From the NCBI GenBank assembly GCA_039545335.1, contig BCIN01000001.1:2607136-2671135 (forward strand): a DNA stretch of 64,000 nucleotides. Direction: 5' to 3'. Under the pieces are notes generated by a model. The model was not told the origin of the DNA and ran no database searches. It saw only the letters and a list, made by a program, of their open reading frames with translations. Positions 919 through 15,559 of this stretch are shown here, one piece after another (position 1 is the first letter of the stretch; each line of letters begins with the position of its first letter). Source of the DNA: Kondoa subrosea (lineage: Eukaryota). Both the position numbers and the translations under genes were made by a program.

Positions 919-3158
919 ATGGACTCTGGACCGCTGTAAGCGACTCGAAAAGCTCGAAAGTCAGCTGCATATTCAAGGACACACAGCTTTCTAGGCATAG
1001 ACGTTGGTTCCACTTCTGCGCGAGCGCTTCTCGTCACGCAAGATGGTAAAATACTCGCAACCGCTATTGAACCGATAACGACGAGAAGAGATGAATTACA
1101 AACTGCAATTTACGAGCAATCTTCTCAGCAAAGTAGGCTCATTTAGAGATCATCCGACTGTTCTCATGATTAATGATAAACCATAGTATGGAATGCTATT
1201 GCTACTTTGTGCAAAGCCGTTCTGGATCAATCAGGCGCAAAGAAAGAGGATATCAAGGGAATAGGTTTCGATACTACTTGTTCTCTCGTCGTTTGCGATT
1301 TCGAGGGCAATCCAGTAGCGGTCTCACCTGATCAAGATCAAAGCGAATATGATGTTATTCTGTGGTGCGATCATCGAGCAACGAAAGAAGCGAAACTCTT
1401 AAATGCTACTGGATCTCATACGCTCAAGTATATGGGTGGATCAGTTGGTGGATTATTTCTGCACACCTAGTGTAAGCTGATTCACTTCCAGGTCATTCCA
1501 GAGATGGCTTTACCTCGCGTGAATAACTGCTGCATCGCTATTGACTTTCCTATAGCTTACCATTTTTTCCAGATCCTTTGGCTCAAGAAACATCTTCCGC
1601 CGAACCGCTTTTCTCAATGTCAATTCTTTGATCTCCCAGACTTCCTGACTTACAAATGTACTGGTAATCCTGTACGAGGAAATTGTTCTTTGATCAATAT
1701 GTGCGGCTACGTTTCTGGTCAAGGTTGGGATAAGAGCATGTTGCGTAAAGTTGGCTTAGGCGAATTAGTGAGCTTTTTTTTCTTGATTTTAAACTGTTGA
1801 GCTAAGTGTTGCAGGTCGATAGAGACTTCGAACAGATTGGCGGAAGTCTTAGACAACCGGTATTGACTGCAGGTCAGCCTGTAGGGAATGGCTTAACGGC
1901 AACAGCAGCGAGTCATCTCGGTTTGGTCGAAGGGACGGCTGTAGGGAGTGCTTTGATCGATTCTTCTTGTGGTTGGACGGGAGTTGCGGCTAGTCAGAAA
2001 GCAGGCGAAAATCCAAGCTTACAAGATGCTGGAAATCGGCTAGTTGGTGTAGCTGGTACATCGACCTGTTTTGTTGTGCAGAGTGAAAAGCCTTGCGAAG
2101 TACCAGGCTGTTGGGGGCCTTATCGAAGCTCTGTCTTTCGCGATTGTGAGCGGCTCTGCTAGGTTCGAACCTCTATAAGCTAAAGTTAGTGCAGATTACA
2201 TGAGCGAAGGAGGGCAATCAGCTTCAGGGCAATTACTGGATTTTATTATCGAAACGCATCCAGCTTACGAAAAGCTCCTTGGCTTGGCTCAAGAAGACGA
2301 TATGCACCCTTTCGAGTATTTAGACCGATATCTTCGACGCCTACAAGAAGATGAAAACAGTCCTTTCCTCACTCACCTCACGCGGAATCTATTCCTTTAC
2401 CCTGACATACATGGTGAGTTCATTCTTCTACCTGCGCAGATCGTACTTATATCCCGGTTAAGGTAATCGAAGTCCTTTGGCCGATCCGACACTCAAAGCT
2501 GTTTGGGTTGGCCTGTCATTAGACAAGACGCTCAAAGACCTTGCTCTCAAGTATCTTGCGGCTTGCGAGTCCTTAGCGTGAGCGATGCTCGCCCTTCCTG
2601 GGCTCCCTTTACTCATCTCAATCGTATTGCAGGCTGCAGACAAGACACATCGTCGAAACACTGAACACAAATGGACAAAGTATCACGTCGATCTTCATGG
2701 GCGGTAAGAATGAAATCAACTGTAAAATGTCCTTGCTCATTTGTGTCCAGGCGGATTGTCACGGAATCATCTACTCATGCAACTTATTGCAAACATCTGC
2801 AATATGCCTGTTCAGCTACCAGCATCTCCGACTCAATCAGTCGTCCTTGGCGCATGCATGCTCGGTGCATGTGCATATTCTCAACAAGGAGTAGACCTAT
2901 CAACACAGTCCAAGATAGAGGAACATGGCATCGCGCTTAGAACAGACTTATGGGATATCATGGTTTGCGATTGCTGTATTTACGTGTTGTTCAAGTCTGA
3001 CATATCCACAGGTCCGAATGTCGCGGCCGGGTACGACTTTACTTCCTTCAGCTAGCCCTCAAGAGAAGAAACTACTGAGGGCGAAGTATCAAATCTTCCA
3101 CGAGATGTTATCGATGCAGAAACGGATTCAGCATGAGATGAATGAAGCAATAGCATAA
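919..3158 (+). CDS. FGGY-family carbohydrate kinase (D-ribulokinase/YDR109C-like), multi-exon
   Basis: Spliced N-terminus FLGIDVGSTSARA; motifs GIGFDTTCSL, VILWCDHRA, FFDLPDFLTY, AGTSTC, VPGCWGPY, EGGQSASGQLLDF, YPDIHGNRSPLADP. Confidence 0.9.
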
Positions 3159-3240
3159 AACTCGTTCCGTGCCTTGCAGTACAGTTACCCACGCATAAAT
3201 CTTTCTCGTACTCGATCAGCCAAATTCCTGTTTTAAGTGT

Positions 3241-5266
3241 ATGCTCCCGCGGCATGCTACATCTTCTAGCATAGACACACATCCACAAACCTCATCACCG
3301 CGTAGAAGATCTCTCACTCTGGCTAACAACTCAGCAAAAGGGAGCGAATACCCATTGGAGGAAGTAGAATCTTTTCTTGAGACTGAAGACGCAGCAGCTA
3401 TGGGAGCTAGCGGTGAATACTCTCGAGGTCGTTATGGCGCGCCTGTCTTGCAGCCTCACAACCAATCAATCCCTTGGTTCAAGCGAAAAGCAGTTCTGGC
3501 AGCTGGTGTAGCCAGTTTGGTAGTCTTGGGCTATCTATTCAGCGGCCCTATCTCTTCTTCTTCTACCTCCTCCCTTTACCCTCCTAATTACGCGCAGGAG
3601 GAACACAAAGCAGGCGCAGGCGTACAGGGGCAGGATGGAGATACAGATTTCTCAGAGTTTGGTTCAGAGGATATCAAAGGTCGACCAGATTTACCTGTTG
3701 CCGACACAAAAGGAGAATGTAGACCAGTACCAGGGAAACCAGAAGGTCAATGGGCTTTGATGATCGATGCTGGGTCAACTGGTTCTCGAATACATATATA
3801 GTCAGTAACTTCCAACCGTCTGCGTTGCTTGATCTGAACGTGATACAACAGTGAATTTGGATGGTGTGCACCTCCGCATTGGAAGCCATCAGATGGAGAT
3901 CCATTACCCACACTCAAACAAGAACTCTTCTTCCAGCTGCAACCTGGACTTTCATCCTATCGTGGCAGACCACAAGCTGCAGCTGATTCTCTCAAACCTC
4001 TAATGGAGGAAGCACTTCAAGCAGTACCTAAATCTGAACAATCTTGTACACCTATTGCCGTAAAAGCAACTGCTGGTCTACGGCTGTTAGGGAAGAAAGA
4101 GTCGGACGCTATCCTAGCGCAAGTGAGGAAAAGCTTAGAGGAAGATTGGCCTTTCTCTGTAATTTCCGAAGCGGAAGAAGGTGTTGCGATAATGGAAGGA
4201 AAAGACGAAGGTGTTTACGCTTGGATCACAATCAACTATCTCTTGGGTTTGATTGGACCTAATGCCAAGAAAGGCGAATCAGCTGCTGTGATGGATCTAG
4301 GTGGTGCATCAACGCAAATCGTCTTTGAGCCTTCTTTCGCTTCCGAAGATGTCACCATTTCTCCTGGTGATCATGTCTACGAGCTCAGCTTGCCAAGTGG
4401 TGACCATACCTTATATCAACACTCTCATTTGGGCTATGGATTAATGCAAGCTAGAAGATCAGTTCACAATCTGATAGCTTTCACTTATGTCTGGCAAGCT
4501 GCACCTAAAGGGAAAGTTGTCGAATGGGAAGATTTAACAGAAGAAGTCGAAATCCCTCATCCATGTATGGTCAAAGATGGACGCAAGAGAGTTGAATTAG
4601 ATCCTCCTGGTCGAGCAACGGTCAATGTTACTTTCGTTGGCACTGGAGCAGGTTTCGATGCGTGTAGAAGGGTTGTTGATGTCATCATGGCAAAAGATGC
4701 GTTGTGTGAAGTGGAACCGTGCGCTTTTGGTGGTGTCTATCAACCGCGATTGATGGAAACTTTCGGAGCTGGTCCAATTTATGCGTAAGTCTTTCGCTAC
4801 CTTGGTCATCTTAGAGATGATTTGAACCTTGATCCCTAGGTTATCTTACTTCTATGATCGGATTATTCCTCTAGGCATTGATTCTTCCCAACCCTTCTCC
4901 ATTTCCGATCTTCGAACATTAGCAATAGATGTCTGTCTTGGTCCAAACCCAGCTTCTGCGCGTCTCAAATCACCTAAAGCGCAAGGCTGGTCAAGATTTA
5001 GGAAATCCAAAGAAGCAATGCATGAACTGAAAGATCGACCTGAGTATTGCTTGGATTTGAGCTTCATGTATAGCTTGTTAAGTTTGGGGTATGAGCTAGC
5101 TGAAGAAAGGACTTTGCGAACGGGGAAGAAGATTGATGGTGTTGAATTGGGATGGTGCGTTCGCAAAATTTTGCAATTGTGATATGCTGATGATGTGTCA
5201 CTTGTTTGCAGGACATTGGGCGCAGCGATAGCGATGCTTGGGGGTGAATTGAAATGCATGGCTTGA
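3241..5266 (+). CDS. GDA1: Golgi guanosine diphosphatase (GDA1/CD39 NTPDase family)
   Basis: N-terminal TM anchor and apyrase conserved regions IDAGSTGSRIH, KATAGLRLL, EGVYAWITINY, DLGGASTQ, and ELGW|TLGAA at the C-terminus. Confidence 0.93.
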
Positions 5267-5325
5267 ATAATGTTCTATTCTGTACAGTAGACATAGGGTT
5301 TGCTATAGACACTTCTATATAGAGG

Positions 5326-5886
5326 TCAATTCTCCTTCCAATCGTGTTTGCACAGACAGCATCTGTCGACACATCAGAGTCTTGCTTTCTTCGGAGCAAG
5401 TAATAACATACTTGTAGAAAGTTGTTGAAGGTTCGTCAGCAGATCTATACAGGATGGTTCGAATGAAGGAAGAGCGCGGCGAGTGATGAGAAGGCATACC
5501 TGATTTGCATTTGAAAGAAGTAAGCTTCCTTGGAATCGCAATCAGGTTTCGGACAGTCAACTATCAACGCATTATCAGCTCAGAGGCGGATGGAAGGCGA
5601 CAATACTCACTCTTGTCCTTTTGAACATTAGTCCAATCCTGAGTCTCACCCATTACATCATCCTTCTCCTTCCGAGCGAATTTCTCTTGAGCGATGTAAA
5701 GCTTGTTGGAAGTAATAGGCCAGCGATAAGGACATGCTTTGCAAATGAAGTATTGCAAGCCTTCGTCTTCGTGACGTTGCACCGTGAGCATGTTAGCGCA
5801 CACAGGGCAGCTGAGCGAAATATAAAAATATAGAAATGCATAAAAACGCAGAACCGAGAGAAAGCAAATAGGACTGACAAGATCAT
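5326..5886 (-). CDS. RPC11: RNA polymerase III subunit C11 (RPC11/POLR3K)
   Basis: Spliced MIFCPVCANML...CKACPY...DDVMG...CPKPDC...AYFFQMQIRSADEPSTTFYKCCLCKHDWKEN*; TFIIS-like zinc ribbon. Confidence 0.93.
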
Positions 5887-6400
5887 CTTGTATAGGTGTC
5901 TCGACTAGGAGATGGACGTGTACAGCGCTAGCAGTGCATGACAGGCGGTTTGCGAACAAGCTCGAGTTGGCGCTGAATTCGTGTATATTAGCCCTGCACA
6001 TCGATGTTGAGGATGTTGGTCTTCTGCGGTCACTCCTTGATCAGATTACCTGAATTCTCGTTTGCAAAGCTTCCCGAAAGGCTTCGCTTAGTCAGCAACT
6101 CAGGTTGACCGCTTTTCGACAAACAGGCTACTCTCTCGTGTTGCGGACAGTACCTACACGTTGCTGGTCTCTCGCATTATCTTCCTGTAGCTAAAGCAAA
6201 AGTGTTTCGTCGACTGCTTTTGTTGAATCGGCTCCCCTGTTTAGTGCATTGAAATCTCGCACCCACTGGTCTCTTCACTTCTACTTCTTCCTGTAATTTG
6301 GTTGCAGGCCACATTGTCTGTCATGTCAAATATCGAGAACAGGTTGAAACTAATGAAGAATCTAATGCATGGATACGAAGTGAGGAAACGTGTGAAAGGA

Positions 6401-7689
6401 CTAGGCTGCCCCTCTTCTAGGCCCTCTCTTTGCTGTGATGTTGCTCTTACTCGAGGTGGCAACATTGCGCGTGGCTCGATTCAATCGTATCTTCTCTAGC
6501 TGTTGCTCCATTTCATCGAGATTTTTTTGCGGAAGAGGCACTTGTCCTCTTTTCAGAGCCTTAGCATTGTGAGCAGTATGCGCAGCGATTATGTCTTCTA
6601 GTTGTTTCGAGGCGTGGCGACTCGTGGGCACCGAACGTCGGTCAGGATTGCATATATCAGCATATTCTATAGGTTCTGGATGGGGTACTTTGTCGTAGGT
6701 GCCCGTAGCGACGCAGTGTCCATGGGTCCAGCTTCGGTGGTCGTGCACGCAATCCCCGACAGGCTTAGCTTCCTTGAGAAATATCCTCTGGAGCGGGAAT
6801 CTATTGTTGCAAGACCTGCAAAGCCATTCTACATCTCGCTGCGATAGAGTAAGCCTTACACTACTGGCGAGCCATCGATCAATACTCACACATTCGGCCA
6901 ACCTTTGATGAAGTTCTTTCTTGACAATGTTCTTGCCTCCGGTCGAACCAGCGGACGAAGCCTAGGACAAGCAATTACAGTATGCTGCGCAGACGAACAG
7001 CAGCGGACGCACAGTATTGATGGCTGACCCTTGAGCAATTGCACCAGGATTCGAGGCAGAAGTCTTTACGGACGAAGCGCATATCAGTACAGGAACTATA
7101 TCTTTGCTCGAAACGCACGGGAATCGATGGAGTATTGGAGGGCAAGACTTGGTTTGTAGCCTGCGCAAGATGTTCTAAAGAAGAGTCCGCTGGGGTATAG
7201 TTAGTATTGTAAGCGGGATTGTGATGAGCTTGAACGATCGACGATGAGGGAGTATGGTTTTGGCCAGGGTACGAGGCTACAGTAGGCGCGATCAGTGCCT
7301 GCGATTATCTCAGCGGAAATTCTACAGCACGTATATAGGGCCTTACAGTGCGCTGGTATGCTTGTTGAGCTACTCGATGAGTTTGCTGGTATGGCGGTCC
7401 GGTAGGTCCGGTAAGCTGTCCATTTGGATTTAGTATTCTAAGCAATGAGAATGCTGCTAATACTGACAGGAGCAGAATGTCTCTGCTGCGCGAGTACGTT
7501 ACTACTAGCTAGACCAGCAGTCGAAAGCGGGTTGTTCTATTGAATACTTCAGATACGGCTAGAGACAGCGAAGCGGCATACCAGCTGTTGAGCAAGCCGA
7601 AGATTTCTCTGAAATTCCTCGTCACTTTCTGGATGCTTCGCAAGCTGAAGAATGCTTTGAAATTCCTTGTCGCTCATTTGGTGATTCAT
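6401..7689 (-). CDS. Orphan paralogue 1 (7 exons): doubled UIM-like motif, low-complexity linker, Cys/His domain, helical tail
   Basis: Six phase-0 GT-AG introns join an open frame MNHQMSDKEFQSILQLAKHPESDEEFQRNLRLAQQL|NNPLST..|LTGPTGPPY..|ALIAP..|TSASNPG..|ASSAG..LAEC|RDVEWLCRSC..GDCVHD..WTHGHCV..PHPEPIEYADI. Shared splice sites are conserved in copy 2. Confidence 0.75.
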
Positions 7690-7761
7690 GTTCGCTGATT
7701 AAGATGTAGCAGAACTGCACAAGACGCAGGAGGGAGAGAGAAAACTGGACAAGACGTAGGG

Positions 7762-7832
<71 letters not shown>
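7762..7832. repeat. (AG)n microsatellite upstream of paralogue 1
   Basis: Perfect AG run ~7771-7823; the equivalent position in unit 2 (~10092-10113) has only a short GA tract. Confidence 0.95.
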
Positions 7833-8901
7833 CAAAATCAAGGCGATTTGGCTGGGTCCACGATTTGGTTAGGCCCGTTCGGCGATAAACGGAATTGCGA
7901 AACGTATGACAGTGCTTGACGAGTAAAGAACAACAAGAACAGATCATATGTACCACGTACAGAGGCATGCTAAAAGCCAGTGATCATATTCGGTATACCG
8001 CATCGATTTTGTACTTCTTTGTGCATCGAGTCTCAGAGTCGCAGCGTGCTCCGTAGACGCCTGGACAGAGGTTGAGGGATACAGACTCTATCAAACGCCA
8101 GTCTTGTAATGGCTCGATTTGACGAATCGCCGCATTGCGAAATCTCCCTTTGACTGCCTTGGACGGCTTTGAGCAGTAGCGAATAACACTTCTCTTCTAG
8201 AGAAACTCGATGCGAGAGAGGAATGAACAATGCTCGCACATACACTTCCGCAAAGGCAAAAGAAACTGCCATTCGCACAGCTAAGAAAGTTCGAGCAGAA
8301 GCAAGCAAACAGCAGAGAGACCATTCGAGAGTTTGACAGATGTAGTAGCAGCGCCAAATAGCAAGATATGCATGCAATGCGATCAGATAGGACAACTAGC
8401 AGTGCATGAAAGGCGGTTTGCGAACAAGCTCGAGTTGACGCCAAATTCGTGTATATTTTGGTATATTAGCCCTGCACATCGATGTGGTGGATGTTGGTCT
8501 TCTGCGGTCACTCCTTGACCAGACTACCTGACAGATTGAATTCTCGTTTGCAAAGCTTCCCGAAAGGCTTCGCTTAGTCAGCAGCTCAGGTTGACCGCTT
8601 TTCGACAAATACTCTCTGGTGTTGCGGACAGTACCTACGCATTGCTGGTCTGTCGCTCTCTCGCATTATCTTCCTGTAGCTAAAGCTAAAGTGTTTTGTT
8701 GACTGCTTTGTTGAATCGGCTCTCCTGTTTAGTGCATTGAAATCTCGCGCCCACTGGTCTCTTGACTTCTACTTCTTCCTACAATCTGGTTGCAGGCCAT
8801 ACTGTACATGGTGTCATTATCGAGAATAGCTTGAAAACAAGAAAGAATCTAATGCATGGATATGATGAAGTGAGGAAGTACATGAAAGAACTAAGCACTA
8901 A

Positions 8902-10051
8902 CTAAGCTACTCTTTTAGAACCTTGTTTTGCTGCGGTTCTGCTCTTGCTTGAGGAGGCACCGTCGCCAAGAGCTCTATTCTCCTGTCTCGCTGCTGCTGC
9001 AGCTAGCTCTTGCTTTATTCGGTCGAGACTTCCTGGCGGAATCTGCCCTCGACCTTGTTTTTTCAGAGCCTCATTTTGAGCGTGATATTGAGCTTCCATG
9101 AATTTCAACGTCTTCTCAGTGTGAGGATTCACAGGCACCAGAGGTCGGTGAGGATTGTGTATATCAGCATAAGCTATAGGTTCTGGATGCGGTACTCTAT
9201 TCCCGGCTTGGTTAACGCAGTGGCCGTTGGTCCAACCTTGACGATCGTGCTTGCATTCTCCAACAGGTTTAGTCTTATTGCAAGCTATATTGTAGAGCGA
9301 GAAGATACTTTTGCAAGACGCGCAACGCCATTTTGTATCTGGCTGTGACAAAGTAAGCCTTGTATAGCACCGGCCATACATAATCCAATACTCACAGAAT
9401 CCTTCAATCGTTCGCGAGCAGGCTTCTTCGGCTCCTGGGCTGCTTCTGCAGGAGTCAAGCGAGGAATCTTTATAGACGAAGCGCATATGAGTACAGGTAC
9501 TATATTTCTGCTCGAAACGTACGGGAACCTTTGGTCTACTAGACGGCAAGACTTGGTTTCTAGCCTGCGAAAGATGTTCTAAAGAAGGGTCTACCGGATT
9601 ATGACCAGCATTGAGAGTGTGATGATGATAAGCTGGAAGGATCGATGATGAGGGAGTATGCTTTTGGCCAGGGTACGAGTCTACACCAGGCGCGATCAGT
9701 GTCTGCGATTATCTCAGCGGAAATTCTACAGCACGTATATAGGGTCTTACAGTGCGCTGGTATGCTTGTGGAGGTCCTTGATGAGTTTGCTGGTATGGCG
9801 GTCCGGTAGGTCCGGTAAGCTGTCCATTTGGACTTAGTATTCTAAGCATTGAGAATGCTGCTACCACTGACAGAAACATGATGTCCCTGCTGCGCGTGTA
9901 CATTACTGCTAGCTGGACCAGCGTTCAAGGGCGCAGAAGAGTTGTTCTATTGAAGACTTCAGATACGGCTAGAGACAGTGAAGCGGCATACCAGCCGTTG
10001 AGCAAGTTGAAGAAATCTCTGAAATTCCTCATCATTCACTTCATCACTCAT
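8902..10051 (-). CDS. Orphan paralogue 2 (6 exons): single UIM-like motif, low-complexity linker, Cys/His domain, helical tail
   Basis: Spliced MSDEVNDEEFQRFLQLAQRL|NNSSAP..|LTGPTGPPY..|TLIAPG..|IPRLTP..LKDS|PDTKWRCASC..GECKHD..WTNGHCV..PHPEPIAYADI. The ORF track entry 8902..9549 reads through two introns. Confidence 0.78.
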
Positions 10052-10878
10052 GTTCGCTGGATAGGATTGGAAAGTACTGAATGGGACTTAGCAGAGGGAG
10101 AGAGAGAGAGGAGAAAATCAAGGGCCCACGATTTGGTTAGGCCCGTTCGGCGATAAACGGAATTGCGAAACGTATGACAGTGCTTGACGAGTTAAGAAAA
10201 GCAAGAATAGATCATACATATCACGTACAGAGGCATGCTAAAAGCTAGTACTTCATATTCGGTATACCGCATCGATTTTGTACTTCTTTGTGCATGAAGT
10301 CTCAGAGTCGTAGCGAGCTCCGTAGACGGCTAGACAAAGGTTGAGAGATACAGACTCTATCCAACGCCAGTCTTGTGATGGCTTGATTTGATGAAGCGCC
10401 GCATTGCGAAATCTCCCTTTGACTGCCTTAGACGGCTTTGAGCAGTAGCGAATAACACTCCTCTTCTTGAGAAACTCGATGCGAGAGAGGAATGAACAAT
10501 GCTCGCACATAGACCTTCCGCAAAGGCAAAAGAAACTGCCATTCGCACAGCTACAGAAAGTTCGAGCAGAAGCAAGCAGACAGCAGAGAGACCATTTGAG
10601 AGTTCGACAAATGTAGTAGCAGCGCCAACTAACAAGATATGCATGCAATGCGATCCGATGGGACAGCGCTGGCAGTGCATGAGAGGCTGTTTGCGGACAA
10701 GCTCGAATGATGTTTTCTCCAGACGGTCATTCGTCGGTGTCAATTCGTCGGCCTCCGCCTGCTTGGCTATCAAGCTTCCATTGACCGTCGTTCAAGCGGG
10801 CAAGCTGGCCTCAGCAGCATCTCTCGCCATCAACTATACAATAAACACAGGATCTTGGTGTCCCGCTTTCTCGTGGTC

Positions 10879-13203
10879 ATGGCCCTTCTGGATGACTTTG
10901 ATCAGGATGCTACACCGCTCAAAATCAATATTCAGTATCGCTGTGAGCTCCATTCATTCATTGCAAAGAGGGTCCAAGCTAAACCTGTCATGCTGCTGTA
11001 GTCTATCTGCCCTTCGCAAAAGAGCCTGGCAGTTCTCTCTTCACTCAACATACCGTGAGCGAGAAGAAAGCCGGCACTGCTTTCAGCAAATGCATAGACG
11101 AGATCATCTCTGCTATGAATGGCTTTTACTCCAAATCACACTATGGCAAACATCAGCCAGAGATTGAACGCGAAGATCTCACTTTTCAGTTTCAGAAGCT
11201 AGCTGCAGCTGGTCAAATTGCTGCTTTTGTGCATAGAAGTGGAGAGAAGAAAGCTTGCACCGAGGGCTCACTTGGGTTTTTCTGGGAATACCACCAGTTC
11301 AACGAGCCAAAGAAGTGTGCACCATGGCAAAGAGCCAATGCACTTGCAGCCAGAACGATAGAACTTGCCGTTCATTTCGATTATCAATCCTACCTTGAAC
11401 GCACTGGAGCAGAAGATAGATCAACAACAAGAAGACCAGCTACAAAGACGAGGAACAGAGTCAAGCGCAAAGTCGAAGACGTCAAAGAGCCAAAATCAGA
11501 TCCTAGCGATCAAGATTTACCTAGAAGGAAGAAAGCAAAGAAGCATCAAAGCCCTCCTCCTGCTCAAGAAGAACCAGCTCCCTTTGACGACGATCTTCCA
11601 GATTTGGCACCTGTCCTCCCTCGTCGAGCTGCTTTGGATGATGCGGAAGAAGCGGATGAATTAGCTCCTAGTGATGGCGAAGATATTGAGTTGGATGATC
11701 TACCGCCACCTTTGGCTAGTGATTTTGGCACACCTGCTCCTGCTGCATCTCTCAACAAAGCACAAGCACAATTGAGTCACAGATCCGCTTCTGCTTCGCA
11801 AGCTGCAAAGTCTACTCCAGGCCAAACAGCTCGAGCATCCACACCAGCTCAGTCATCAACAACGCAGAAAGAGCTCAAATCAAAGACTCCAGTCAGCAAT
11901 TCAACAGTTGAGAATGTCTTGAACACACCTCGAGCTTCCACTTCTGGCACACCTTCCACTTCCATTCTCAAGTCCAGTCGGATCAAGGCTACCCCTTCCA
12001 CTCGTCCTTCTCAAATCGCTACTCCCGCCTCAGCTTCAGTGCGGAATACCATCGTACATCCTGCAACAACATCGACATCGACAAGTATGCCTGCCGCTGG
12101 AATACAGGAAGATGTGAAACCCGATATAGCCTCAATTCGACCGAATATACCTTCAGCTAGTCAAAGCACGTTCAAACCATCTTCACTCAAACAGCCTATC
12201 ATCATCGATGAAACTAGCGACGAAGACGAAAGTCCAGCAACTCCTGCTTTGCCCAAATCAACAGCTTCTGTCAGTCGTATTACCACAGATCCTGCTCCGC
12301 CTGCTTCGTCTATCGCAAAAGGGAAACGTAAGGCTGTCGATGCACCAAAAAATACTCAACCAGTAAAGAAGAAGACCAAAACTCATACGTCAGCAGATAG
12401 CAGAAGCACCATCGATAAAGGAAAAGCGACAGCCAAAGAAGTGGATTTACCTAGAGGATATGCCAAAGCCATTAAAGCAAGAGTTGCAGATAAGAACAAA
12501 GCTGCTGATTTATCATATGAAGTTGGTGATTTGGTTTACTTTACTACTTGGGCTACTTTATCTGGCTATGGTGAACTTCGGAAAGGTGGTGTAACAAAAA
12601 GTCGGAAGGGCAACTTCGATGTTAAACGTAGAGTTATCCCTGCGAACAGATTTTCACCAGAGCTGATAAACTCCGATAGACTTTGAGAAGATGCCTGCTA
12701 ATTATGAGCCACCTCGATCAGAGAATGAATCGCCTTTCCAGCCTAATTCTACTCAAAGCTTCATCAAAGTCAAACCTGATCCAGATCAATCTCCTTCGCG
12801 CAGATCTCCAACTGGTAGCTCAAGAGGTTTCGTCTGTGGTTCCACTACTGTTCCGCGAGCATCTACTTCGACCGCTCGGATGACTTCTGCTTCGGAAGAA
12901 GCTCCTTCTCAAATTCCTTCTCGACCGAATCCTGTTATAAGAAACATCGAATCTTCCTCTGAAGATGATGAAGACGAAGATTTACCCGATATCAGTCAAA
13001 GCACCTTTAATCCTTTCAAACCTTTTGTGAAATTAGAAAAAGTGGAACCTGTCAAAAGTCCAGCTCGACCTACTGCTTCTCAAGCCGAATCACAAATTGT
13101 AAACAGTGCAAGGAAGAGTATATCTAGTCCAGGGAAGCAGAGCATGAGCAAAAGTATTGGGAATTTGAAGAAAGCGACTGTCATTGATTTAACTAGCGAT
13201 TGA
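10879..13203 (+). CDS. Hypothetical protein: N-terminal globular region, long disordered S/T/P/K-rich region, SIM-like motifs
   Basis: ORFs 11055..12686 and 12691..13203 join via intron gtagag..ctgat..tag (~12628-12679) giving DVKHFEKMPA. Upstream exon from ATG 10879. Basic NLS-like clusters; ends TVIDLTSD*. Confidence 0.75.
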
Positions 13204-13581
13204 ATTTTGTATTAACATTTTGTAATCCTGTGTCTCAATCAAGTATACAACTTTGACGGCGAAATGTATCGAAGCCGCTTCGCTTGCTTTTAAAAATAAA
13301 ACTGCGTCGCGGCGCCGCAATGAGAGTCGCGCTTTGACCACATTTCGCCTTCGAGTAATCTTTACGGAGGCCACAGAGGTATGTCTGTGTGCTGGAGCGG
13401 GAGCTGAACGTATATCATAGCGCCACAACACATACACTGAATCTCAATGTGCTTTACTTCTGTTGCCTTCTTACCACCAACTTAAATCACAACAACCTCG
13501 CTTTGCATTCGCTGAGAAGGACAGACGTGAGTCACATCCACTCCTCACTGGGATTGATATTGATCTTTTCAATAGTGAACG

Positions 13582-15559
13582 ATGCCTCCTAAACGTAAAG
13601 CAGCTGCTAAGAAGAAGAAGGTTGTCAGCGATGATGAAATGGACTCCGACTGCATGTTCGCTTGACTTGTAATCACTCATACTCATTCTAGCATATCCAG
13701 ATGATATTCTCGATGGACCAGCCAAGAAACGAGCTGCTGCTGCCAAAACTACCAAAGGTAAAGGCAAGAAAGCCACAGCTGCTCATGAAGACGAGGACGA
13801 AGATGCTGGTGAAGATAAGAAGCCTCTTGCTAAGAAGGCTAAGAAAGTCGTCAAAGCTAAGGTGCGGCCGGACGATGGTGCTTGTTAAGTAGTCCGCTCA
13901 TTGCTGTGCTCCATCTCTCTCTTCTCTTTCTCCGCGCCTCTCCTTTCTGTTTCGCTCCGTCTCTTACTCATATCGTCCGCTCCTCTTGATCCTGAATGAT
14001 CAAAACACGAATGTAGAAACACAAGTGAGTTTCTCGCTGGTGTACTAAGACTCACTTCTCATTAACTCTGTTACAGTTGGAACGAGTAATTCAGCTGTTT
14101 ATAGGCAGTCTCATTGCTAACCGAACGCACAGTATCCCCAAATGGAAGGACGACAAGTCACCTTTGATCGATAAGTCCCCAATCGAAGTGATTGACGCCG
14201 TTCTAGGCGATGAGGGTCTCGTGAGTCTCAAGGCAGACCGTCACCTATAAGCTAACATTGCGAATAGAATATCCGTGATCACATTGCTCTTGCTGGTGAG
14301 CTCTTGTCACATATCAACGACACCTCAGCACTGATAAGGATCTTTCAGCTACCTGCAGAGCTTTCCGTATCGCTTACTCCACCGAAGAAGTCTGGAAAGC
14401 CCTTATGGACACTCGTCAGATTGTTACTGTCGCTGATGACTACTACAACGATTTTCGTGACGAAGTCGGTGACTTGGGCAAATCTAACGACAAGGACGAG
14501 ACTGCTCAAAATCACAAGACTGTCACTCACATCATGAGTAACGCTCGTGAGTCTTCTTTGTGTCGAGTCATAACAACGTCTGACCCACTATATTAGCCTC
14601 TGTTCGCCCTGCTGATTTCCAAGTCATGAACGACGGTCAGCTTGTCGTCGCTCCTTCTCACATCTCTGCTATCTTCAAGGTCTTCAACCAACGCATCAAC
14701 ATGACTACCGCTAAAGTATGTTCAGATGACATGCACTGTCAAAGTAGTCTCATGATCAGCCGAACAGGCTAACTTCAAAGTCAACGAAGCTGCTCTCAAG
14801 AATCTCACCTTCAAAGAGGAATGGAACAGACACAATCCTCAAGTAAGTCGCTGCTTACATTCAGTATACTTTATAGCTGAGCCGGTATACAGGTCCCAAA
14901 GAAGATGTATAGAGAATGTACGTCGGCTACAAATGATAAATTGTCCTCTACTCAAAGCTGTTGCAGACGCTGTTCAGGCTATGGCTTACTTAGTGAGTTT
15001 GGTTTCCGTGTTCGCCTGTGCAAGACTAATTTTGTTTCCTAGGCGTCGGCGCTACTACTTGTCCAGTTGTGTTCAGGCTGATGTTTTCGACAGCCATGGT
15101 GGTCCCATGGAACACGAGCGTCATATGCAGAAGCTCAAAGCCTCAGCTGACAAACGCGCTGCTACCAAAGCTGCCAAGAATTCTGCTGACGGTGTTGTTC
15201 CCAAGAAGAAAGCTCCTGTCATGTACGTTGAATGCATCTCAAGTTTGATGAACAATTCTCAACGCAATTCGATTCTAAAGCAAAGGAGTCAACGGTAGAC
15301 CAGTCGCGTCAGAAACTCAGCATCGCGCTAATTCCTCTTGTACATTGTCATGTAGATTGGCATTTCCCACGCGAAGCGTATCAAAAAGAAGGTACGTATG
15401 CTCTCATTCAGAGAGGCTGTACTCAATCCATATTCAGGTTATGCTGGTTATGTGGGCTACAAAGTAAGCTTTGCCATACAAACGAAGGCATAGAGCTGAC
15501 ATGACGTCCGGCAGGAATACTATCATGGTGATGGGGAAGGTGGATACCGAAGTGACTGA
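13582..15559 (+). CDS. F-box-like protein with XPA-C-like helical domain; many exons including micro-exons
   Basis: Spliced MPPKRKAAAKKKK..KKHNWNDIPKWKDDKSPLIDKSPIEVIDAVLGDEGLNIRDHIALAATCRAFRIAYSTEEVWKAL (F-box-like) ..TTAKANFKVNEAALKNL..RHNPQVPKKMYRE..AVQAMAYLAHGG (XPA-C-like). 3' exons approximate. Confidence 0.7.

Follow-up and report, generated by a model that had tools for sequence, protein, structure and literature searches.

Why should two neighbouring genes share introns and flanking DNA that are almost identical, while the last exons of their proteins share about half of their residues or fewer? This question is raised by a head-to-tail gene pair, here called A and B, in a window of 64,000 nucleotides (nt) from Kondoa subrosea (GCA_039545335.1, contig BCIN01000001.1, positions 2,607,136 to 2,671,135 of the forward strand); the window is the whole stretch of DNA that was analysed, and coordinates below are positions within it. 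The answer we favour, at a probability of roughly one half, is that A and B are an old tandem pair whose non-coding DNA would be reset by gene conversion or unequal exchange, with selection keeping the two proteins different.

A tandem pair in two age layers

Comparison of the window with itself by BLAST returned blocks of 628 nt (90.1% identity), 586 nt (85.2%) and 1014 nt (74.4%), together with a 44-nt terminal repeat, and resolves two units of ~2.4 and ~2.3 kilobases (kb) arranged head to tail, each with one gene on the minus strand. Unit A (5922-8388) comprises the 3' flank, gene A and the 5' flank, with its left edge 36 nt upstream of the ATG of an RPC11-like gene; unit B follows at 8389-10662. 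Gene A (6401-7689, minus strand) is predicted from sequence to encode 328 amino acids in seven exons (7689-7582, 7536-7468, 7415-7347, 7298-7119, 7063-7013, 6961-6890 and 6838-6401), and gene B (8902-10051, minus strand) 298 amino acids in six (10051-9992, 9946-9872, 9819-9751, 9702-9523, 9467-9396 and 9342-8902). The predicted introns, six in A and five in B, are all GT-AG, in phase 0 and 45-55 nt long; intron 4 has AAG as its acceptor. The claim of the initial annotation that two intact multi-exon genes stand in tandem here is borne out by the BLAST blocks and by these open frames.

One must consider that such a pair might be an assembly artefact, or comprise two decaying pseudogenes or transposon relics: the gene models are predictions, and the three codon positions of the last exon have diverged equally, as in a pseudogene. 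We regard this as extremely improbable. Contigs from two sequencing runs (X1 and X2) of one sample span both copies and the junction between them (8254-8566) with 0 differing letters, which argues against assembly error, although the sample may be the assembly's own source and the agreement is then not independent. Depth in run X1 was 56 and 60 for the copy-specific contigs vs 54 and 52 for the flanks, and in run X2 141 and 162 vs 144. Both genes retain their splice signals and contain 0 internal stops, and the coding indels between them are all in frame, which argues against decay. As to transposon relics, the search for further copies that the initial annotation had advised was run on the genome (18.9 megabases in 27 contigs, copy counts being lower bounds): by protein, DNA and motif it returned two copies, both at this locus, and none further. 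Unit DNA matched this locus alone, one additional match had E=0.93, and no Pfam transposase or other family was matched.

Divergence is distributed unevenly along the two units. The flank blocks differ at 17/312 and 35/535 aligned sites (52/847 together), an identity of ~94% without gaps and ~90% with them, in agreement with the ~90% first estimated by eye. The earlier counts for intron 1 (2/45) and intron 3 (1/48) were identical on recount; introns 2 and 4 differ at 4/52 and 7/55, which brings introns 1-4 to 14/200, and the longest identical runs outside the last exon measure 67, 53, 47, 43, 43 and 42 nt. The last intron differs at 14/51 sites (p=4e-5 vs 7/145 in introns 1-3), and is more diverged, as had been noticed. 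The last exon, described by the initial annotation as about half identical over its first ~70 amino acids and less so after, retains 37 of its first 70 residues and 26 of the 73 remaining aligned ones. Its four-fold degenerate sites differ at 11/29, significantly more than the flanks (52/847; p=1.4e-6) or the four-fold sites of exons 1-4 (5/44; p=0.01), and these silent sites support the patchy-conversion component that the annotation had proposed.

Windows of 50 nt mostly hold 1-8 differences in the flanks and 13-26 in the last exon, and the peak begins shortly after the stop codon and reaches, by way of the last intron and exons 6 and 5, into intron 4. Exons 5-7 with the last intron thus form an old layer (6401-7063 in A, 8902-9467 in B, minus strand), with mostly 13-26 differences per 50 nt and one window of 8; within the gene, a young layer follows on the same strand (7064-7625), where introns 1-4 at 14/200 are interleaved with exons that differ at 62/362. 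High divergence had at first been attributed to the Cys/His domain in particular. This has to be corrected, as the helical tail, exons 5 and 6 and the last intron are equally or more diverged.

The same genome provides a control in a tandem of the APA2 family (contig C2, 89669-95670), whose copies share two blocks, one of 1.1 kb (90%) and one of 0.28 kb (85%), around middles that do not align. They differ at 11/464 first and second codon positions, 35/232 third positions, 22/98 four-fold sites and 25/157 intron sites. This is the ordinary pattern of purifying selection, opposite to that of A and B, and the intron figure indicates that short introns in this genome are not strongly constrained. 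Scaled by the APA2 tandem, the 5' half stands at about 0.11-0.13 substitutions per site and the last exon with its intron at about 0.51-0.53, an age ratio of 4.4 between old and young layers (interval 1.8-10.9), and after scaling introns and four-fold sites are concordant inside each layer.

Silent and intronic sites cannot be driven apart by selection on amino acids, so parts of the two units must differ in age, and different ages within a unit require either exchange between the copies or the capture of older sequence. A recent duplication whose last exon came under very strong positive selection, without any conversion, would account for the agreement of flanks and 5' introns on an age of 6-7%, and mixture fits (below) allow it the class of strongly selected codons that it needs, with a ratio of replacement to silent change (omega) of ~6. 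It is nevertheless largely refuted, and in our view highly improbable: 11/29 four-fold sites and 14/51 sites of the last intron are beyond the reach of amino-acid selection alone. Since CpG transitions make up merely 20 of the 140 last-exon differences, CpG decay is not the source of the peak either.

Constraint, selection and barriers to exchange

Both genes are under constraint and their reading frames are conserved. All seven coding indels (48, 6, 102 including a 51-nt intron, 3, 3, 3 and 9 nt) are in frame vs 2 of 14 non-coding ones (p=3e-4), a count that leaves out the terminal alignment gap and places an 8-nt gap at the stop codon among the non-coding ones. The 12 of 14 non-coding indels that break frame also rule out a hidden gene in the flanks. 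In 5000 neutral simulations of the last exon of A, just 3.6% of runs remained stop-free at a divergence (d) of 0.29 and 0.7% at d=0.57, and all eight Cys/His/Trp residues shared by A and B were retained in 0.36% of runs at d=0.29 and in 0/5000 at d=0.57. Two of the larger indels lie in A: a 48-nt internal duplication of exon 1 (7626-7674, minus strand), which repeats an acidic helix motif in copies identical at 33/43 nt, and a segment exclusive to A (6923-7024, minus strand; 102 nt), which consists of the 51-nt intron 5 and 17 codons. The two segments would represent either gains in A or losses in B.

The initial annotation had raised diversifying selection, and held that silent divergence (dS) as high as replacement divergence (dN) in the last exon would speak against it. 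By the NG86 method dS is 0.64 and dN 0.46, so that dS is indeed as high as dN, and omega is 0.99 in a GY94 fit that includes transition bias; codon positions 1, 2 and 3 differ at 50, 53 and 54 of 143, and the mean omega of exons 1-4 is 1.12. Diversifying selection as sole cause is not supported by these values. The test is not decisive, however, because selection that blocks conversion locally would be expected to leave linked silent sites and introns to diverge as well, and the comparison does not discriminate between that situation and conversion alone. A mean omega near 1 in a sequence that yet contains invariant residues suggests that some sites exceed 1. Support for such sites is borderline: in the last exon, M2a is preferred to M1a at p=0.011 (F3x4) or p=0.047 (equal frequencies), and a class with omega>1 improves on a null of two ages (an age mosaic) at p=0.041, all from custom two-sequence fits with rough chi-square p values.

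The 5' half offers a further line of evidence. The stretches of low divergence in it fall on the introns (p=0.009 by circular shift, p=0.019 by random placement), and first and second codon positions of exons 1-4 differ at 47/250, more than introns 1-4 (14/200; p=3e-4) or intron interiors alone (8/96; p=0.02). Taken together, positive or diversifying selection on the pair is suggested.

From these observations the following history may be drawn. A lineage-restricted fungal gene would have been duplicated long ago into a small array, the units of which exchanged DNA repeatedly via gene conversion or unequal crossing-over. Such exchange would have reset the flanks and 5' introns to ~6-7% divergence, with the last intron and exons 5-7, the kilobase at the 3' end, remaining outside it some four times longer, and the 5' exons retaining more amino-acid-changing differences than their own introns. 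Conversions that made the proteins alike would have been selected against, A and B having different jobs. The duplication, its two age layers, the conserved frames and the contrast between exons and introns are plain in the data; we infer that conversion was the homogenising process and selection the barrier. Local peaks of divergence are described where selection removes conversions (PMC3924837, section 3.2, and PMC2588116), and the rise of linked silent sites within such peaks would follow from the lack of exchange there.

Several points weigh against selection as the barrier. Firstly, neither the omega of the last exon nor that of exons 1-4 differs from 1, and the mixture tests are confounded by conversion. 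Secondly, the 47/250 changes at first and second positions of exons 1-4 do not significantly exceed their own four-fold sites (p=0.29), and the calibrated ratio of replacement to neutral divergence, 1.8 (0.94-3.5), drops to 1.4 when an island of 18 codons is left out of exon 4. Thirdly, the VPHPEPI-x-YADI block of the last exon, with one silent change among 11 shared residues, may be a conversion patch and not proof of constraint, and the Cys/His part is folded with low confidence (see below). The comparison itself draws on the two copies of a single genome and on predicted gene models. Finally, neutral blocking of conversion could come from the 102-nt indel, which is situated in the old layer.

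This last point opens the way to an account in which selection on the difference between the copies plays no part. Exchange between old duplicates would have stopped locally, near the 102-nt segment as a candidate neutral barrier and as mismatches accumulated, and continued elsewhere; the protein would be weakly constrained outside a few metal ligands, an omega of ~1 would reflect relaxed selection, and the copies need not differ in function. Omega 0.99, the equal divergence of the codon positions and the situation of the indel in the old layer are what such patchy conversion predicts, and an age mosaic without positive selection fits just marginally worse (p=0.04, 0.05). Large indels and accumulated substitutions can disrupt conversion without selection, according to PMC3924837. 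Neutral loss of exchange explains less well why low-divergence patches follow introns (p=0.009-0.02), why the peak takes in all of the last exon, as far as ~520 nt from the indel, and then fades within ~125 nt beyond the stop codon, or why both frames are intact despite ~157 substitutions in the last exon. We consider it the main rival, possible if on the whole less likely than not.

A second alternative takes the array itself as its starting point. Both units are bounded by a short repeat, x, of which copy 1 (5922-5965, 44 nt) has 4 mismatches to copy 3 (10663-10706, 44 nt), and the junction copy (8396-8433) differs at 1/38 from copy 1 and 4/38 from copy 3; with U for a unit, the order is x-U-x-U-x. 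Copy 3 may be what is left of a lost third unit, or else the homology from which the duplication arose. The order also fits a crossover between repeats flanking one unit, as would be expected had A and B once been two old alleles of a single-copy locus under long-term balancing selection, of a self/non-self or poison/antidote type. Recombination between the alleles would then have preserved the similarity of the flanks during divergence of the specificity exon; the alleles would have come to lie in tandem by unequal crossing-over at the 44-nt repeat, or by introgression. Balanced alleles, too, give a peak of silent and replacement divergence centred on coding DNA, and the APA2 tandem shows that another tandem in the genome shares blocks around non-aligning middles. 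On the other side, alleles cannot be shown from one genome; copy 3 of x is as diverged as the flanks (4/44), which fits the remnant of a further unit equally well; and no homeodomain, pheromone receptor, transposase or known allorecognition domain was found in the two genes or in the window's open reading frames (ORFs) scanned for domains, 88 of 128 of at least 100 amino acids. Stacked alleles are accordingly a doubtful explanation, and slightly more doubtful is its fuller form, in which A and B would be long-standing types with two specificities of an undescribed basidiomycete-yeast gene, zinc-binding and of the self/non-self or poison-antidote kind, separated by selection and stacked in tandem. 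Were that so, other strains would have a single A-type, a single B-type or further types at the locus. As to the allorecognition, defence or drive role mooted at the outset, nothing was found that points specifically to any of the three.

The encoded proteins and their surroundings

The domain at the start of the last exon (A, 6653-6826; B, 9160-9330; minus strand) aligns between the copies as W-x-C-x2-C-x19-C-x-H-x8-H-C followed by VPHPEPI-x-YADI, confirming the motif as first quoted. A metal-binding Cys/His domain is plausible from this arrangement, with C7, C10, C30, H32, H41 and C42 of the last exon as six candidate ligands. It is followed in A by a predicted two-helix hairpin (6458-6613, minus strand; last-exon residues 76-127) and then a basic tail. 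AlphaFold2 models have a mean predicted local distance difference test (pLDDT) score of 53 and 46; just the hairpin block, residues 81-120 of the last exon of A, reaches 77-85, and blocks of the Cys/His region lie at 30-57, so low that the models are uninformative on the fold. Both proteins are basic (isoelectric points 9.4 for A and 9.6 for B) and rich in P/S/T/Q/A/G/N/H in their N-terminal half; no hydrophobic segment was found in either, the top 19-residue hydropathy means being 0.25 (A) and 0.29 (B). Our tentative reading of these features is that both proteins would be soluble, basic and probably nuclear, and would combine an N-terminal half of low complexity with a small zinc-binding module and a helical hairpin; A and B would differ in their specificity for a nucleic-acid or protein partner.

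No homologue outside this genome was found in searches of protein, metagenome and viral sequences; these large-database searches used the last exon, and the full spliced proteins were compared with the window. A phmmer search of 1.84 billion representatives gave one match (E=6e-5), a 738-residue repeat protein without any of the conserved cysteines, which was rejected. A word-indexed search with the alignment of the two sequences yielded 0 of 4674 longer candidates and 0 of 315 of similar length. One of 124 stretches of metagenome contigs matched, by chance, on the opposite strand of a long bacterial-looking ORF, and was rejected also; viral contigs gave 0 of 17. Pfam, NCBIfam, PHROGs and PDB sequences gave no match above cut-off, and thus no housekeeping or transposon domain of the kind that the initial annotation thought would count against its reading. 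The best profile matches below threshold were Dof (E=0.05, B), VHP (E=0.025, exon 1 of A) and NF041197 (E=0.003, A). In the ESM Atlas the whole last exon of A scored 0.78 at best, and residues 1-72 of B scored 0.85; the latter likeness, to small ascomycete proteins of which one cluster is automatically named RanBP2-type, lies below 0.9 and is a lead only. Foldseek returned nothing at E<=0.001 and VIA-align nothing at Z>=2, in both cases with low-confidence models. A ubiquitin-interacting reading of the exon-1 helix was dropped, Pfam support not being found. The earlier judgement that the domain is assignable to no family therefore holds across profile, sequence, ESM Atlas and structure searches, none of which gave a credible candidate.

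The left neighbour is a minus-strand gene, its ATG read at 5886, for an RPC11-like polymerase subunit; its PF02150 match (E=1.6e-4) is under the cut-off, and its motifs suggest RPC11. Within unit B, 8396-8815 repeats the DNA just upstream of this gene, ~94% identical to the working copy, without such a gene behind it. The right neighbour (10879-13203, plus strand) is long; its N-terminal region looks folded, its extended tail is basic and of low complexity, and the profile scan gave no Pfam family; a contig of run X2 at 12358 has a 255-nt loose end that matches nothing within 3000-14000. GA microsatellites of unequal length, (GA)35 in A (7762-7832) and ~11 units in B (10093-10114), stand just 5' of both start codons and could alter expression between the copies. 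An Rfam scan of 5800-11000 found no credible RNA. For a nearby GDA1/CD39 gene, the top named match was in Rhodotorula toruloides (63%), then mostly in rusts (50-56%), with other relatives at no more than 91%; together with the short GT-AG introns, this suggests a fungus of the Pucciniomycotina, probably of the Microbotryomycetes. Farther along, ORF 51877-52518 of a multi-exon gene (51605-53833, minus strand) weakly matches the pleurotolysin B C-terminal domain (PF18684, E=9.6e-6, 25.9 bits vs a cut-off of 27), and the gene possibly encodes a pore-forming protein of MACPF type.

Comparison with known systems

The pair adds a case, real and well supported, to a known evolutionary pattern, here in an orphan gene, and is at this stage more an oddity than a new system; no account of a gene of this kind from red or basidiomycete yeasts was found in the literature searched, which mostly did not cover subscription journals. 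Clean fungal cases, with introns at ~7% and adjoining replacement sites at ~19%, flag genes whose products are kept different. As the gene has no detectable relative, its Cys/His module may represent a small metal-binding domain not described before. To our knowledge few conflict or recognition genes are known in this fungal group, and if population data reveal alternative types at this locus, the gene becomes a candidate for one.

Among zinc-binding families, RanBP2/NZF ribbons, and likewise small ascomycete W-x-C-x2-C proteins, share the W-x-C-x2-C start. The RanBP2/NZF consensus is W-x-C-x2-4-C-x3-N-x6-C-x2-C; A and B differ from it in having Phe for Asn four residues past the second Cys, with the next ligand pair, C-x-H, after 19 residues and then H-C, and PF00641 gave no match at E<=10. 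Dof and GATA-like fingers follow C-x2-C-x(17-21)-C-x2-C, whereas the second knuckle of A and B is C-x-H; the Dof match was to B alone, with 14 bits vs a cut-off of 26.6 and nothing in A. The first half of a RING resembles A and B in its C-x2-C, long spacer and P-V-x2-C-x-H, but a RING has eight ligands, with C/H-x2-C two or three residues after C-x-H, and ligands 5 and 6 are not conserved here, nor was there a Pfam match. Zinc fingers derived from transposons (SWIM, WRKY/FLYWCH, BED) found no Pfam match either, and unit DNA occurs at this locus alone. Homeodomain (HD) mating-type genes of basidiomycetes encode a homeodomain and form a divergently transcribed pair; no homeodomain was matched in the exons scanned, and A and B lie head to tail on one strand.

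The wtf drivers of Schizosaccharomyces pombe come closer in their genetics, being likewise lineage-restricted, multi-exon, tandem fungal genes with non-allelic conversion and very diverged proteins (bioRxiv 10.1101/461004). The wtf drivers are predicted transmembrane proteins in a family of >20 copies, with an additional start codon close to exon 2 for a short poison isoform; in A and B there is no predicted membrane segment (hydropathy maxima as above), and they number two copies as a lower bound and lack Met in exons 2-6 (A) and 2-5 (B), no methionine occurring between exon 1 and the C-terminal helices of either. By the features examined, A and B are not members of the wtf, HD, RanBP2 or RING families.

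The closest parallels lie in evolutionary pattern. In exon 5 of the human red and green opsins and in Drosophila Pre28, close tandem copies likewise have homogenised introns and flanks and a peak of coding divergence (PMC3924837; PMC2588116). Two hallmarks of the opsin case are found here: low non-coding divergence (flanks 52/847, introns 1-4 14/200) and a local coding peak (50-nt windows, four-fold sites 11/29, last intron 14/51). Such cases would also show an excess of amino-acid-changing differences in the peak (here a mean omega of 0.99, with mixture tests at p=0.01-0.05), trees that switch from grouping paralogues in introns to grouping orthologues in the peak, with flat divergence between orthologues, and a difference in function between the copies. 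There are differences. The opsin case was proved by comparison of orthologues, whereas A and B are known from one genome; the function of the opsins is known, whereas that of A and B is a prediction from sequence; and the peak here, unlike that of the opsins, extends over a full kilobase that contains a large indel, and lesser peaks stand in the 5' exons. Judged by this analogy, the A/B pair most likely works as the red/green opsin pair does.

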